Shown piece after piece: positions 1-57,934 of a stretch of 64,000 nt of DNA. Both the position numbers and the translations under genes were made by a program. Every line of letters begins with the position of its first letter. The stretch's first letter is position 1. The notes below the pieces were generated by a model, which was given only the letters and a program-made list of their open reading frames with translations, was not told where the DNA came from and did no database searches. This stretch comes from Escherichia coli O157:H7. GTDB lineage: Bacteria; Pseudomonadota; Gammaproteobacteria; Enterobacterales; Enterobacteriaceae. The stretch lies in NCBI RefSeq assembly GCF_013167455.1, contig NZ_CP038328.1; one strand, given 5' to 3'.

Positions 1-687
1 ACCGCGCTTGATGCGGCCAATGCCGATAACGCCAACATAGCTGTTGTAATCGAGCTGAGAAATCTGCATCTGGAACGGACCGTCAAGGTCAACGTCCGGC
101 GCAGGAACGTGGTCAACAATCGCCTGGTACAGCGGGGTCATGTCTTCCGCCATATCTTCGTGGTCCAGACCCGCGATACCGTTCAGCGCAGAAGCGTAAA
201 CGATCGGGAAGTCCAGCTGCTCGTCGGTCGCGTCGAGGTTAACGAACAGATCGAATACCTGATCCACAACCCAATCAGGACGCGCGCCAGGGCGGTCAAC
301 TTTGTTGATAACAACAATCGGCTTCAGGCCGTAAGCAAACGCTTTTTTGGTTACGAAGCGCGTTTGCGGCATCGGGCCGTCAAATGCGTCAACCACCAGC
401 AGCACTGAGTCTACCATGGACATTACACGTTCAACTTCACCACCGAAGTCGGCGTGCCCCGGGGTATCAACGATGTTGATACGGTAATCATTCCATTTGA
501 TAGCGGTGTTTTTCGCGAGGATGGTAATCCCACGCTCTTTCTCCAAATCGTTGGAGTCCATCACGCGCTCTTGGGTTTCGGCACGAGAGTCGAACGTACC
601 GGATTGTTGGAGCAGCTTGTCTACCAGGGTGGTTTTACCATGGTCTACGTGCGCGATGATGGCGATATTACGCAATTTTTCGATCAC
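1..687 (-). CDS. typA: GTP-binding translational regulator TypA/BipA, N-terminal part; gene continues beyond window start
   Basis: Minus-strand translation from GTG at 687 reads [26 protein letters not shown]... through ...[20 protein letters not shown] at position 1; divergent from glnA as in E. coli. Confidence 0.9.
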
Positions 688-838
688 AACTTTGCCTCAG
701 GCATTAGAAATAGCGCGTTATTGTACACGGATTAATCGCACTACAAAACAGGATCACAAACATCCTCCGCAAACAAGTATTGCAGAGTCCCTTTGTGATC
801 GCTTTCACGGAGCATAAAAAGGGTTATCCAAAGGTCAT

Positions 839-887
839 TGCACCAATATGGTGCTTAATGTTTCCATTGAAGCACTATATTGGTGCA
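839..887 (+). promoter_or_regulatory. Two NtrC (NRI) enhancer sites upstream of glnA
   Basis: tgcaccaatatggtgct (839-855) and gcactatattggtgca (872-887) match the TGCACC-N5-GGTGCA NtrC dyad. Confidence 0.8.
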
Positions 888-7593: not shown

Positions 7594-7660
7594 AATGGTT
7601 CGTCTTTTAGCCGTTTTATTCAGTATAGATTTGCGGCGGAATCTAACAGAAAGCAAGCAA

Positions 7661-7904
7661 AGAAAAAAGGCGACAGATTACTCTGTCGCCTTTTTTCCTG
7701 ACTCATAACCCTTAACGGGTCTTACAATCCTTGCAGGCCGCCAACACACCCTGTTTTTCCATTAGCCGGAACAATCCGTGTTGATTCCATTTCCGTTTAA
7801 TTACGTCTCCGGACGTTTGTCTTCCTGACAATCCTCTGTCTTCGCCTCCTGGCGCTCCTGACCCTCATCCTGAGTCATTGTTCCTGTTAGCGTCCTCGCT
7901 CTAT
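7661..7904 (-). ncRNA. csrC: CsrC small RNA (CsrA-sequestering)
   Basis: Minus-strand sequence atagagcgaggacgctaacaggaacaatgactcaggatgagggtcaggagcg... with many GGA motifs, ending in ggcgacag/ctgtcgcc hairpin plus T-run; lies between yihI and engB. Confidence 0.85.
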
Positions 7905-8174
7905 GGGTGCTACTTTACGCCTTTGCTTTAAACAAACAATCAACCGCCATCAGTATTTGCACATTTTCAGAGTTTTATATAAAAGCAATTAACTGATTTA
8001 TATAGCTTATTTGACATGCATCGCAGAATTTTCTCTGCTATTTCGCATAAAGACTATCGGCAATGTCTCACAAAGCGTATGGCTTTTACTTACAACGCTC
8101 ACGCCGAAAAATCCGCCTTTTATTATGGTTCAGGTATAATCGCCGCAAAGCTTTGACTGACGGAGACGACCGCT

Positions 8175-8807
8175 TTGACTAATTTGAATTATCAACAGAC
8201 GCATTTTGTGATGAGTGCGCCTGATATTCGCCACCTACCTTCCGATACCGGAATTGAAGTGGCTTTTGCAGGCCGTTCCAACGCAGGTAAATCCAGCGCG
8301 CTGAACACGCTGACTAACCAGAAAAGCCTGGCTCGTACCTCAAAAACCCCTGGACGCACCCAGCTTATCAACCTGTTTGAAGTGGCTGACGGCAAGCGTC
8401 TGGTTGACTTGCCTGGGTACGGTTATGCGGAAGTCCCGGAAGAGATGAAGCGCAAATGGCAGCGCGCGCTCGGCGAGTACCTCGAAAAACGTCAGAGCCT
8501 ACAAGGTCTGGTAGTGCTAATGGATATTCGCCATCCGCTGAAAGATTTGGATCAGCAGATGATTGAGTGGGCGGTAGACAGCAATATCGCCGTGCTGGTA
8601 CTGCTGACCAAAGCGGACAAACTGGCAAGCGGCGCACGTAAAGCGCAATTGAATATGGTGCGTGAAGCGGTGCTGGCGTTTAACGGTGATGTGCAGGTTG
8701 AAACGTTTTCTTCGCTGAAGAAACAAGGCGTGGACAAGCTGCGGCAGAAACTGGATACCTGGTTTAACGAGATGCAGCCTGTAGAAGAAACGCAGGACGG
8801 CGAATAA
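8175..8807 (+). CDS. engB: Ribosome biogenesis GTPase EngB/YihA
   Basis: 210-aa [25 protein letters not shown]...[13 protein letters not shown]1 motif; apparent TTG start. Confidence 0.92.
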
Positions 8808-36717: not shown

Positions 36718-38960
<2,243 letters not shown>

Positions 38961-50889: not shown

Positions 50890-52719
50890 CTACTCTTCGT
50901 CGTCGCCATCGACATGCGCACGAATCAGCGCCATAAACGGTTTACCAAAGCGTTCCAGCTTGCGCATCCCAACGCCGTTAACGCTGAGCATTTCGCTGGC
51001 GGTGATCGGCATCTGTTCAGCCATCTCAATCAAGGTTGCGTCGTTAAACACCACGTACGGCGGGACATTACTTTCATCGGCAATCGATTTACGCAGTTTG
51101 CGTAATTTGGCGAACAGTTTGCGATCATAGTTGCCGCCGAACGATTTCTGCATCGCTTTCGGTTTGAGCGCCACGATACGCGGCACGGCAAGTTGTAAAG
51201 AGGATTCGCCGCGCAGCACCGGGCGCGCGGCCTCTGTCAGTTGTAGGGCAGAATGCTGGGCAATATTTTGCGTCACCAGGCCGAGGTGAATCAGCTGGCG
51301 GATCACGCTCACCCAATGTTCATGGCTTTTATCACGGCCCATGCCATAGACTTTCAGTTTGTCATGACCATAGTCGCGGATACGCTGGTTATTAGCACCA
51401 CGAATCACTTCCACCACATAACCCATCCCAAACCGCTGATTCACACGACCAATGGTGGAAAGGGCAATCTGAGCATCGGTTGAACCGTCGTACTGTTTCG
51501 GCGGATCGAGGCAGATATCGCAGTTCCCGCACGGCTCCTGACGCCCTTCGCCAAAATAGTTCAGCAATACCAGACGACGGCAAGTTTGCGCTTCGGCAAA
51601 CGCGCCCATCGCATTGAGTTTGTGGCGCTCGATATCCTGCAACTGCCCCTGCGGCTTCTCTTCCAGACAACGGCGCAGCCACGCCATATCAGCTGGATCG
51701 TAAAACAACATCGCTTCCGCAGGCAGGCCATCACGCCCGGCGCGACCGGTTTCCTGATAATAGGATTCGATATTGCGCGGAATATCAAAGTGGACCACGA
51801 AGCGAACGTTTGGTTTATTGATGCCCATGCCGAACGCCACCGTCGCCACCACAATTTGCAGGTCATCGCGCTGGAATTTCTCCTGCACGTCGGCGCGGAC
51901 ATTATTTTCCAGCCCGGCATGATAGGCCGCCGCGCTAATACCCTTGCTTTGCAGGCGCGCAGCGGTGTCTTCTACTTTCGCCCGGCTGTTGCAGTAGATA
52001 ATGCCGGACTTACCGCGCTGTTCCTGCACGTAGCGCATCAACTGATCGAGCGGTTTGAATTTCTCCATCAGCATGTAGCGAATATTCGGACGGTCAAAAC
52101 TGCTGATTTGAATCAGCGGATCGTTCAGCCCCAGCAGGCGCACGATATCCTGGCGCGTGGTGTCGTCGGCTGTGGCGGTCAGCGCCATAAACGGCAGCGT
52201 CGGGAACCGCTGGCGCAACTGACCGAGCGCGGCATATTCCGGGCGGAAATCGTGGCCCCATTGGGAGATACAGTGCGCTTCATCAACGGCTAATAACACC
52301 GGATTCCAGTGCGCCAGATGCTCAAGAAAGTTATCCAGCATCAGGCGTTCCGGGGCGATATAAAGCAGACGAATTTGCCCGGTGCGGCAGCCTGTCATCA
52401 CTTCAAGTTGCTGTTCGCGGGTTTGCGTCGAGTTAAGGCACGCCGCCGCCACGCCGTTGGCTTGCAGTTGATCCACCTGATCTTTCATCAACGAAATCAG
52501 CGGTGAAACAACCACGGTAAGGCCGTTTAGCAATAAGGCAGGAATTTGATAGCAAAGGGATTTTCCGCCACCGGTGGGCATGACGACCAGGCAATCGCGA
52601 CCGGAAAGCACAGTGTCGATAATTTCTTCCTGGCCGGGGCGAAACTGTTGGTAGCCAAAGGTTTCTTGTAAAACCTGTTTAGCTCCGGACTCCAGATTCA
52701 ACACTTCCGCCTGCGCCAC
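50890..52719 (-). CDS. recQ: ATP-dependent DNA helicase RecQ
   Basis: (M)[33 protein letters not shown]... DEAH box, RQC zinc motif, HRDC tail; GTG start assumed (alternative GTG 6 nt upstream). Confidence 0.95.
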
Positions 52720-52741
52720 ATTCACCCCGATTGCCTGAAAT

Positions 52742-52768
52742 AAAAACAGGCGCTATTTTCAGCGCCTG
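52742..52768 (-). terminator. Rho-independent terminator of pldA
   Basis: caggcgct-gaaaata-agcgcctg hairpin followed by TTTTT on minus strand. Confidence 0.7.
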
Positions 52769-52851
52769 CGCGAGAAACTGCAATGCTTTTAGTCTCTGAG
52801 AGGGTAATCCTGGATGCTGGATTCCAGATTTGCCAACCACTCAACCGTTCA

Positions 52852-55338: not shown

Positions 55339-55653
55339 TTATCTTTTTTTGAAAAAAATTAAGATAAGAAAAAGAACAATATTTGTTACAGGAAATCCCC
55401 CCAAAACTCCCCAGTACTTACTCCATCCTAGAGACATCGTATATCTACCAAGGATTTGACAAAACCCAAAACTTAACCCTATACCTATACTTCTTAAATT
55501 TAATGTCGTAGTCAGGCTTAAAATAAATAGAACAAGGATGGTAATAGCCCACCACAATAACCATGCCTTAACAAAATCAGATTTTTTGCTGTAAGGTTCT
55601 TTACCCAAGAACAACTGCCAAAAGTTACCATTTCCCATATAGAATCCATTCAC
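55339..55653 (-). CDS. Hypothetical small membrane protein (104 aa, about 3 predicted TM helices)
   Basis: Open frame in very AT-rich DNA where stops are frequent by chance; hydrophobic segments AWLLWWAITILVLFILSL, IGIGLSFGFCQILG, VTNIVLFLILIFF; no family assigned. Confidence 0.55.
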   Translation of the reverse strand: MNGFYMGNGNFWQLFLGKEPYSKKSDFVKAWLLWWAITILVLFILSLTTTLNLRSIGIGLSFGFCQILGRYTMSLGWSKYWGVLGGFPVTNIVLFLILIFFKKR

Positions 55654-55776
55654 CCAAGATATTGTTTATAGAATAAAAATACATTCCAATTATATTTAAT
55701 TAAAATATACCCCATCAATAAAAACTTACACACTCTAAATTACTACTGTATAGTTATCAATGCAAAGACTGCTATA

Positions 55777-55794
55777 TTGCATATATATATGCAA
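55777..55794. promoter_or_regulatory. Perfect 18-bp palindrome in divergent promoter region
   Basis: TTGCATATATATATGCAA is its own reverse complement; lies between the divergent 104-aa and 128-aa ORFs. Confidence 0.4.
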
Positions 55795-55853
55795 ACCACA
55801 TAATTCAGGTAATATATATTCAAAACAATTATATATATAAAACAATGTAAAAA

Positions 55854-56240
55854 ATGTTCAAATCATCCATCAGAAATATATTCTACCCATCCAAGCTTGA
55901 GCGTTTATCACGCTTTCAGTTCATAATCTATACATTAACATCATGGTCAATATTAATAACTTTGAATGATATCAACCTGGCTTTGAGTTTTATTCTGGTT
56001 ATTAATAATACCTATGTAAATATCAATATTGGAGCAAAAAGAATAAGAGATACTGGATGTAAGGCAATCTACTTTGTATTGATTTCATTGGGTTTGACAC
56101 TTTTTTCTATTATCTCTGCAGCAATTGAAGGGGTGAGATGTGAGTCATTAAGCGTCCAACTCAACGTGGCATGGATATTATTCACAACAATTATGTTATC
56201 TGCGATTCCCTCTGCTAAAATGTCGCTGTCAGCACACTAA
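55854..56240 (+). CDS. Hypothetical inner-membrane protein, DUF805(YhaH)-like (128 aa)
   Basis: ORF in AT-rich DNA; motifs LERLSRFQF and KRIRDTGCKA resemble the DUF805 signature (GRxxRKEYW ... RRLHDxxxSG) from memory; several TM segments. Confidence 0.6.
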   Translation: MFKSSIRNIFYPSKLERLSRFQFIIYTLTSWSILITLNDINLALSFILVINNTYVNINIGAKRIRDTGCKAIYFVLISLGLTLFSIISAAIEGVRCESLSVQLNVAWILFTTIMLSAIPSAKMSLSAH

Positions 56241-56264
56241 CTTACTCACAGCGACATCGTATAG

Positions 56265-56409
56265 TTACAGCCAGTTCTTGCGCTTAAAGTACAGATACGG
56301 TGCCAGGCCCGCGAGGATCATAAAGATAATCGCGCCTGGGTAGCCGAAACTCCACTTCAGTTCTGGCATAAACTCAAAGTTCATGCCATAGCTGGAGGCA
56401 ATCGGCGTA
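56265..56409 (-). repeat. Duplicated 3' end of corA (gene fragment; direct repeat of 57976-58120)
   Basis: About 145 bp nearly identical to the genuine corA 3' end; encodes ...[44 protein letters not shown] in frame; identity decays toward the inner edge. Confidence 0.9.
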
Positions 56410-56597
56410 GGAAAAAGTTTCCTAATCGGTAAATTCAATATTTTGTTATTAACAATGAGCAAGACCAATCATTAACGACGTTCTCTTCAGAGATGTAATG
56501 AAAAAATGTGAAGTGTACTTCTTTTTTAAATATTTTTTTACCCTAGCATTTGTTCTCAAATTGATATTGAGCTTAAATATAACCAAGGAAAATGTAA

Positions 56598-57446
56598 ATG
56601 AATAACACATTACTTCCATCAATTAATATTCCCTGTACACTTTTCGAAACTATTAGTTTATTTGATAATTATTCTGCTGATGATATGCAATATGGTGATA
56701 TGGTAGAACAAGATTTTCTCTCACTCGGCCTAAGCGATATCTCAGCAAAAGTTGATCCTTACAGACTTATTAAATACCATTTCCCTGGCCCAGGTTCTAT
56801 TAATGTTGCTTTTAGTGCCTCAAGTTCCGGAACAAAAATATCACAACGTGAATGCACTGATATTTTATTTGCAGAAATGAAAGAACTAGCAAAAATGTTT
56901 TCCTTTTTTGGACAATATAAAACACTTATCGAAGATCTGATTGAACATTTTAGATATGGAAATGGCAGCAATTTTCATAGCCAACAATTAAATTTATCTT
57001 TTCATGAAAAAATAAATAAATATGGTTATAATAGTCCAATACGAATAATCAAAGAATGTATCGAAAATGGCATTAATTCAACTCCCTCGACAGGATACCA
57101 ACCTCTTATCCTGCAAAGCATTAAAACCAAATTACTTTCATCAAGACTAAATAAATTTAATGACTTCGAGGACAGTTTTAATGGCTTAGGAATCAGTGTT
57201 CATGATATTTCAGCTCAAAAAATATCTCTTTTAAGTTTTCAAAAATACGCTATAGGATGGAGTGCAACAATTCATTTTGTAGCACAGGACCACTTCGGTC
57301 TTGATGTAACTGATATCAAAAACAAGACTTACAGCAAATATAGATTTTTTCGCATATGGTTCTTTTTACAACGGCATAAAGACTTTGCTTTCAAACCTTT
57401 TTTCACCAATTTTAACACTATCGAAAGAATCGAAAATTATCTATGA
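56598..57446 (+). CDS. Hypothetical protein, 282 aa, no signal peptide, no recognised family
   Basis: 849-nt ORF in about 30% GC DNA (estimated by eye), which is improbable by chance; AAGGA SD 9 nt upstream of ATG; stop overlaps next ORF start (ATGA). Confidence 0.8.
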   Translation: MNNTLLPSINIPCTLFETISLFDNYSADDMQYGDMVEQDFLSLGLSDISAKVDPYRLIKYHFPGPGSINVAFSASSSGTKISQRECTDILFAEMKELAKMFSFFGQYKTLIEDLIEHFRYGNGSNFHSQQLNLSFHEKINKYGYNSPIRIIKECIENGINSTPSTGYQPLILQSIKTKLLSSRLNKFNDFEDSFNGLGISVHDISAQKISLLSFQKYAIGWSATIHFVAQDHFGLDVTDIKNKTYSKYRFFRIWFFLQRHKDFAFKPFFTNFNTIERIENYL

Positions 57447-57934
57447 AAAGCAAACTCCAAAAAATTATATTATGTTTATTTCTTCTATGCTGCATCTATA
57501 ATTTATGGACATTGCGTCCTGTACAGATTTTGTATACATACTCTGATGCTGGCAATTCAGTCTTTCTGGTCGTTGATCATCTGCCATGGACTGACAGCGA
57601 TAAAATAAATTGGTATCTGAAGCATCAGAATGAAATTAAAAATCAACATCCCCTACCAGAAGGTAGTTGGCATACCTGGTATGTCATTGATATCGGTAAT
57701 GGCTTCACTGACTATAAAAAATATATCGAAGGGCCGTATGAAGATCTCTACTGTTTCCCGACAATTAAGAGCAATGATAATTGCATCACGAAAAATTACT
57801 TAATGGTTATTAATGAATACCCTTATCGTAACACTCATATTGGTATTAACGATTTTACTGAGTATCAATTAACACAAGAAAATAAAATAGAGCAAGTTTT
57901 CAATCCGCATAACTTTAAAAAAGACAATTTTTAG
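57443..57934 (+). CDS. Hypothetical membrane-anchored or secreted protein, 163 aa
   Basis: N-terminal K-rich then hydrophobic stretch (MKSKLQKIILCLFLLCCIYNLWTL) typical of signal peptide/anchor; translationally coupled to upstream ORF; ends 41 nt before convergent corA stop. Confidence 0.75.
   Translation: MKSKLQKIILCLFLLCCIYNLWTLRPVQILYTYSDAGNSVFLVVDHLPWTDSDKINWYLKHQNEIKNQHPLPEGSWHTWYVIDIGNGFTDYKKYIEGPYEDLYCFPTIKSNDNCITKNYLMVINEYPYRNTHIGINDFTEYQLTQENKIEQVFNPHNFKKDNF

Follow-up and report, generated by a model that had tools for sequence, protein, structure and literature searches.

Non-ATG initiation codons of engB, typA and recQ in a 64-kb segment of an Escherichia coli O157:H7-type chromosome

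Where does translation of a conserved bacterial gene begin when the candidate start codon is not ATG? The question arises at three E. coli housekeeping genes of the stretch of DNA analysed here (64,000 nucleotides in all, hereafter the window), for which an earlier note, made from the letters alone, had placed the start of engB at TTG 8175, that of typA at GTG 685-687 and that of recQ at GTG 52717-52719 or 52723-52725. We find that all three very probably use ordinary Shine-Dalgarno (SD)-led initiation at UUG (engB) or GUG (typA and recQ), with true starts at 8175, 687 and 52719. The calls themselves are already known: they match the current K-12 annotation and, in the case of engB, also a published re-annotation. 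What is added here is that recQ is settled at 52719, on the comparative grounds given below, and that the weak start codons are themselves conserved.

The window spans the typA-glnALG-hemN-yihI-csrC-engB-spf-polA ... rrnA ... recQ-pldA ... uvrD region, in an orientation inverted with respect to K-12. Positions 1910014-1974013 of NZ_CP022689.1 differ from it by only 4 mismatches over 64,000 nt, which identifies it as a segment of an O157:H7-type chromosome and allows the PGAP annotation of that record to be transferred base for base, with starts at 8175 (engB), 687 (minus strand, typA) and 52719 (minus strand, recQ). Of 5,426 complete E. coli genomes, 5,425 carry a match to a 2.2-kb probe around the finding, and in O157:H7 strains the identity is 100%. 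The corresponding genes of K-12 MG1655 (NC_000913.3), yihA/engB (b3865), bipA/typA (b3871) and recQ (b3822), start at TTG, GTG and GTG, and the curated K-12 products have the same lengths as those of the window (EngB 210, TypA 607, and RecQ 609 aa). Over 60 nt on either side of each of the three starts, K-12 and the window are identical save for a single difference at -30 of engB; experiments made in K-12 thus transfer to the window. Two features elsewhere in this DNA deserve mention in their own right. Between rarD and corA (55339-57934), four O157-type features (a hypothetical gene, a 3'-terminal piece of a second corA-family gene, a pseudogene at 56265-56411, a DUF3289 gene, and a DUF943 gene) replace K-12 yigF and yigG and form a small strain-specific island. 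A strong Rfam hit to the small RNA Erse/EsrE (316 bits; 38355-38606, minus strand), annotated as esrE in K-12, lies within the 3' end of ubiJ.

Three kinds of check had been named for these boundaries in the earlier note, namely SD spacing, start mapping by Ribo-seq or N-terminal data, and alignment to reference proteins, and each of them favours the called starts, the second for engB only. SD pairing was scored as the energy of the anti-SD duplex in kcal/mol, a measure by which about 7% of random 20-mers of the window reach -6. The best duplexes are found at the called starts of engB, typA and recQ (-6.6, -5.6, and -6.3 kcal/mol, respectively), 3-9 nt upstream of the codon, against +0.4 to -2.8 for the alternatives; each chosen start has the only good SD match among the candidates tested, and three-nucleotide periodicity begins directly after it. 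A start-type codon occupies the orthologous site in 80/80 (engB), 51/51 (typA), and 9/9 (recQ) of the taxa compared. The TypA and RecQ equivalogs align from residue 1 and the EngB profile from residue 10, upstream of Met13, and the PDB chains in E. coli numbering (1PUI, 5A9V, and 1OYW) begin at the called start residues. As for direct mapping, both an initiating-ribosome footprint and an N-terminal peptide are published for engB. The TRAINSPOTTER N-terminomics supplements, searched by gene name, UniProt accession and peptide, gave no hit that maps the start of typA or recQ, nor did the supplements of Giess 2017 or of INRI-seq contain matches to these two genes; the text of the Ribo-RET preprint mentions none of engB, typA, and recQ. 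Both typA and recQ are absent from the alternative-start tables of tetracycline ribosome profiling (TetRP; PMC4909307), which means only that no rival site within 60 nt is at least 10-fold stronger; this is weakly consistent with GTG 687 in typA, and it is uninformative for recQ if that gene is too weakly expressed. A Verified Set of Edman-sequenced starts is described in EcoGene 3.0.

The start of recQ, left between two codons in the earlier note, demands the closest weighing. The features concerned are the following.

50890..52719, minus strand: recQ coding sequence, 609 aa (PGAP, PDB 1OYW, NF008279)
52717..52719, minus strand: recQ initiation codon GTG, 609-aa product (PGAP and K-12 annotation, conservation, NF008279)
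52723..52725, minus strand: upstream GTG, a rejected alternative recQ start with a 611-aa product (codon not conserved; duplex -2.8 kcal/mol)
52724..52728, minus strand: SD-like GGGGU (GGRGU across genera), 4 nt before GTG 52719 (duplex -6.3 kcal/mol)
52746..52769, minus strand: pldA intrinsic-terminator hairpin, a ten-pair stem followed by the T-run TTTTATTT, kept in 8/9 genera

The minus strand opens recQ with two in-frame GTG codons, 52725..52723 and 52719..52717 (GTG AAT GTG GCG CAG...). In public databases, the predicted length of enterobacterial RecQ varies between 603 and 630 aa, some predictions extending back through the pldA terminator, which makes the hesitation of the earlier note reasonable; together with the fact that the representative of the E. 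coli RecQ cluster (10,300 members) is the 611-aa form, this spread indicates that automated callers disagree. Enterobacterial RecQ N-termini are in this respect a case of systematic start-calling inconsistency in databases. A recQ start at the upstream codon (611 aa, M-N-V-A-Q), or the use of both GTGs, would find favour in that cluster representative, in a number of further automatic predictions (several or many), and in the length of the ORF, the longest that recQ offers; we nonetheless consider it improbable. When nine genera were compared (the window and the DNA of eight further genera), the codon homologous to 52719 was invariably GTG (9/9), whereas the one homologous to 52725 was GTG in five genera and GTT (two), GAG (one), or GTC (one) in the remaining 4/9. 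The 1990 paper on RecQ purification is reported to contain N-terminal sequencing that supports Ala-Gln-Ala-Glu. Geometry agrees with the comparison across genera, as the GGRGU motif overlaps the upstream GTG, leaving zero spacing, and GGGGU cannot therefore serve that codon, for which the best duplex reaches -2.8 kcal/mol. PGAP and the K-12 curators place the start at 52719, and so does the equivalog profile of the bacterial RecQ DNA helicase: against NF008279 the protein scores 1312 bits (cut-off 1015), with residues 1-608 on profile positions 1-608 of 608. The catalytic-core structure PDB 1OYW covers RecQ residues 1-523, starting at residue 1 of the 52719 form. On comparative grounds, then, the recQ start is resolved to 52717-52719, not 52725, which is the former of the two codons proposed in the earlier note.

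A recQ start farther downstream, at GTG 52704..52702 (codon 6 of the 609-aa form, with products of 603-604 aa), is highly unlikely: 13 of 120 database RecQ homologues are called from this position and an SD-like GGCGGAAG lies 5' of the codon, the adjacent segment scoring -5.8 kcal/mol, but the codon is GTA, GTT, or ATG in 5/9 genera, GTA and GTT not being start codons, and the AQAEV residues upstream of it are conserved at the protein level. We also rejected a role for the out-of-frame ATG at 52718-52720 (minus strand), which would encode only MWRRRKC before a stop, is present in 4/9 genera, and looks incidental. The SD of recQ is weak. A G·U pair is needed for the -6.3 kcal/mol duplex, and the spacing is short; in a published survey recQ has no Watson-Crick SD of at least 4 nt, and RecQ abundance is given as 0.594 ppm (PMC9841429). 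About 20 nt separate the pldA terminator from the beginning of the ribosome-binding site, an arrangement kept in 8/9 genera. A consensus sigma-70 scan before recQ returned no two-hexamer promoter, and no promoter-like site was seen between the pldA hairpin and the recQ ribosome-binding site; recQ would thus owe its expression to read-through of the terminator or to a promoter 5' of the hairpin.

For engB, the codon proposed in the earlier note rests on published experiment as well as on comparison. The relevant features are these.

8135..8140, plus strand: likely engB -10 element TATAAT, read from the sequence
8162..8165, plus strand: engB Shine-Dalgarno GGAG, 9 nt before TTG (anti-SD duplex -6.6 kcal/mol)
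8175..8177, plus strand: engB/yihA initiation codon TTG (PGAP and K-12 annotation, published TetRP, conservation)
8175..8807, plus strand: engB/yihA coding sequence, 210 aa (ORF, PGAP annotation, PDB 1PUI, TIGR03598)
8211..8213, plus strand: ATG of Met13, a rejected alternative engB start from the 2006 K-12 annotation (no SD, almost no TetRP reads)

TTG 8175-8177 is the first ATG, GTG, or TTG past the in-frame TGA 8154-8156, and a 210-codon ORF follows it. In K-12 yihA, TetRP placed 181/190/153 reads at this TTG in three replicates, as against 0/0.36/0 at the ATG of the 2006 annotation (PMC4909307 Table S2, row 57); the same table lists a TTG at -36 relative to that annotation as a new initiation site, and its N'-peptide column reads "new annotation", the site agreeing with the 2014 re-annotation (PMC4909307 Tables S2 and S3). 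These data bear directly on the reading in which engB begins at the internal ATG 8211 (Met13), yielding a 198-aa protein and leaving the upstream TTG region as 5' UTR. ATG is the commonest start codon, and Met13 was the official K-12 start until 2014 (4048156-4048752 in 2006 vs 4048156-4048788; PMC4909307 Table S3), yet we regard this reading as scarcely tenable in view of the nearly empty TetRP signal at ATG 8211 and of several independent lines of comparison. The in-frame alternatives 8184, 8208, and 8211 each give an anti-SD duplex of +0.4 kcal/mol and have no SD, whereas the position of GGAG is kept across the species of an 80-species Enterobacterales alignment. In these 80 species, recovered with 10-kb flanks, the start codon is TTG in 72, GTG in 8 (the Enterobacter/Lelliottia/Silvania group), and ATG in none. 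Most of the 80 species, and most genera, have Thr, Leu, or Ile in place of Met13 of E. coli EngB, and the downstream ATG is therefore absent there. Variability at codon positions 1/2/3 just past the TTG is 0.035/0.091/0.222, as opposed to a flat level of about 0.42 upstream, and the third-position variation of codons 2-12 bespeaks constraint on the protein. EngB scores 252 bits (cut-off 124) against TIGR03598, the broad profile of the YihA/YsxC ribosome-biogenesis GTPases, residues 10-193 falling on profile positions 2-185 of 186, and distant solved homologues align from residues 6-9, so that profile and structures alike reach 5' of Met13. PDB 1PUI equals EngB over 210 aa with one residue different.

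Upstream of the engB TTG, at a distance of about 30-40 nt, most of the 80 species carry a TATAAT or TATACT hexamer. A consensus sigma-70 two-hexamer scan before engB found no full promoter, and it is for this reason that the -10 assignment is one we infer. The sequence GCTTTGACT(G/A)A forms a direct repeat at 8150-8160 and 8172-8182 (plus strand), 22 nt apart, with the engB TTG inside copy 2; a special role for it was considered and rejected, as copy 1 is not kept beyond Escherichia, Salmonella, and some Citrobacter, and the repeat is probably due to chance. In the neighbouring csrC, the small RNA CsrC (Rfam RF00084, 278 bits; 7651-7904, minus strand) encloses a frameshifted "hypothetical protein" pseudogene of the PGAP annotation (7712-7878, minus strand), almost certainly a piece of non-coding RNA miscalled as a CDS.

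The third gene, typA/bipA, runs out of the window, and its start is tightly bracketed by the reading frame.

1..687, minus strand: typA/bipA coding sequence, N-terminal 229 codons, the rest lying beyond the window end (PGAP names the full gene typA)
685..687, minus strand: typA/bipA initiation codon GTG (PGAP and K-12 annotation, conservation, NF007583)
695..698, minus strand: typA Shine-Dalgarno GAGG, 7 nt before GTG (duplex -5.6 kcal/mol; nearly invariant in 51 species)

The typA start is confined to a few codons by an in-frame TGA (699..697), four codons upstream of it, and by the G1 motif, which begins at residue 12. From that TGA onward and ahead of G1, the start-type codons are GTG 687 and a TTG at codon 5; the latter was rejected, having a duplex of -0.4 kcal/mol and no SD, and being CTG in most species. 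The GTG proposed in the earlier note is, by comparison, GTG in 51/51 species, and the 40-nt leader before it is nearly invariant among them. Against NF007583, the equivalog for the translational GTPase TypA/BipA, residues 1-229 fall on profile positions 1-229 of 607 with E = 1e-161, only these N-terminal 229 residues being scorable; since the gene is cut by the window end, the whole-protein cut-off of NF007583 is unreachable. Untagged BipA structures, such as PDB 5A9V, begin at the same residue as the GTG 687 product.

The surroundings of this start show further features of note. The GTG sits in a UUGUGA context (686-691, minus strand), an overlapping TTG-TGA start-stop that looks incidental; a special role for it was rejected, as the whole leader is conserved and conservation of the overlap is hence non-specific. 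The 100 nt 5' of the GTG (688-787, minus strand) are near-invariant in 52 Enterobacterales species, beyond many coding third positions, and a TACAAT resembling a -10 element lies at about -38 of typA. Just upstream of the leader, on the same strand, an Rfam match to the ES222 sRNA (769-876, minus strand) overlaps the NtrC-enhancer palindromes of glnA.

Are these three genes exceptional in their surroundings? Among the 54 annotated CDS that start in the window, 45 begin with ATG, 7 with GTG, and 2 with TTG (83/13/4%), to be compared with shares of 83/14/3% in E. coli genes and 81.8/13.8/4.35% in well-annotated bacterial genomes (bioRxiv 10.1101/063800). The nine non-ATG starts are those of typA, engB, mobA, hemG, tatB, rmuC, bioP, recQ, and ysgD, and in the eight compared with K-12 (all except ysgD) the codon is identical there. 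Non-ATG use in the window is thus the genome background, with no enrichment. That nine such starts inside a single 64-kb window form an unusual local concentration marking the region as special is very hard to credit, as 9/54 (16.7%) matches the 17-18% background of E. coli and other well-annotated genomes and the nine genes are dispersed and functionally unrelated. The warning of the earlier note that six-frame ORFs over-extend N-termini is borne out, with 20 of the 54 CDS having at least one in-frame ATG, GTG, or TTG upstream of the annotated start. In counting such boundaries as the least certain part of its annotation, it framed the matter aptly as one of annotation uncertainty, but for engB, typA, and recQ that uncertainty proves smaller than feared.

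How would initiation proceed at these sites? The 30S subunit would be positioned by SD/anti-SD pairing a few nucleotides upstream, through GGAG in engB, GAGG in typA, and GGGGU in recQ, and the fMet-tRNA would read the near-cognate NUG codon as methionine. Reported efficiencies of initiation with AUG, GUG, and UUG span 10-100% of that with AUG (10.1101/063800). Being less efficient than AUG, GUG and UUG probably help to hold the expression of these genes modest, a tuning role that we infer. In recQ, the effect of GUG would add to that of the weak SD and of the place directly behind the pldA terminator; weak SD, GUG, and terminator-adjacent position together fit the very low abundance of RecQ.

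Purifying selection on start codons has already been described. In the genes studied here, codon identity itself looks constrained. At the first base of the engB start the major allele reaches a frequency of 0.90, higher than at 98% of the engB four-fold degenerate sites (mean 0.57), and the G of the typA start is invariant, as are only 8% of the typA four-fold sites. Within E. coli, the first base was followed in 55-mers in which each 28-nt seed was forced to include it: the T of engB is matched in 5424/5426 genomes, with A and G variants matching none, and the G of typA and the G of recQ are each matched in 5425/5426, with no match to an A variant of either. ATG never occurs at the three sites, whether in 80 (engB), 51 (typA), and 9 (recQ) Enterobacterales species or in the approximately 5,425 E. 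coli genomes, these conservation counts ignoring kinship and a single TTG-to-GTG switch being visible on the tree for engB. It is thus conceivable, and we put it forward tentatively, as somewhat short of an even chance, that weak start codons are held by selection as expression-setting devices and do not reflect mutational chance, a suggestion drawn from the comparison of sequences. If selection does act on codon identity, excess initiation of EngB, TypA, and RecQ would be harmful. The three start calls as such bring no new biology. Their value lies in annotation quality, as correct N-termini serve cloning, proteomics databases, and structure work; a reason based on conservation is now given for the 609-aa RecQ, and the TTG of engB is grounded in published start mapping.

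Set beside known systems, the three starts are familiar ones. Between the O157:H7-type window and K-12 there is no start-relevant difference. The yihA TTG mapped by Nakahigashi et al. 2016 (PMC4909307), 36 nt 5' of the old ATG, has its orthologous site in the window. The catalogue of AUGUG/GUGUG initiation sites in PMC9841429 includes recQ as an "atGTG" gene, that is, one whose annotated GUG overlaps an AUG one nucleotide upstream, and the window shares the AATGTGG context; no ambiguity was predicted there for recQ. A further parallel is offered by the AUU start of infC, a regulatory non-canonical start, to which engB, typA, and recQ are alike in that a non-AUG codon lowers or sets the efficiency of initiation. 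Unlike AUU, GUG and UUG are standard starts, with which about 17% of E. coli genes begin, and no autoregulation is implied for engB, typA, or recQ.
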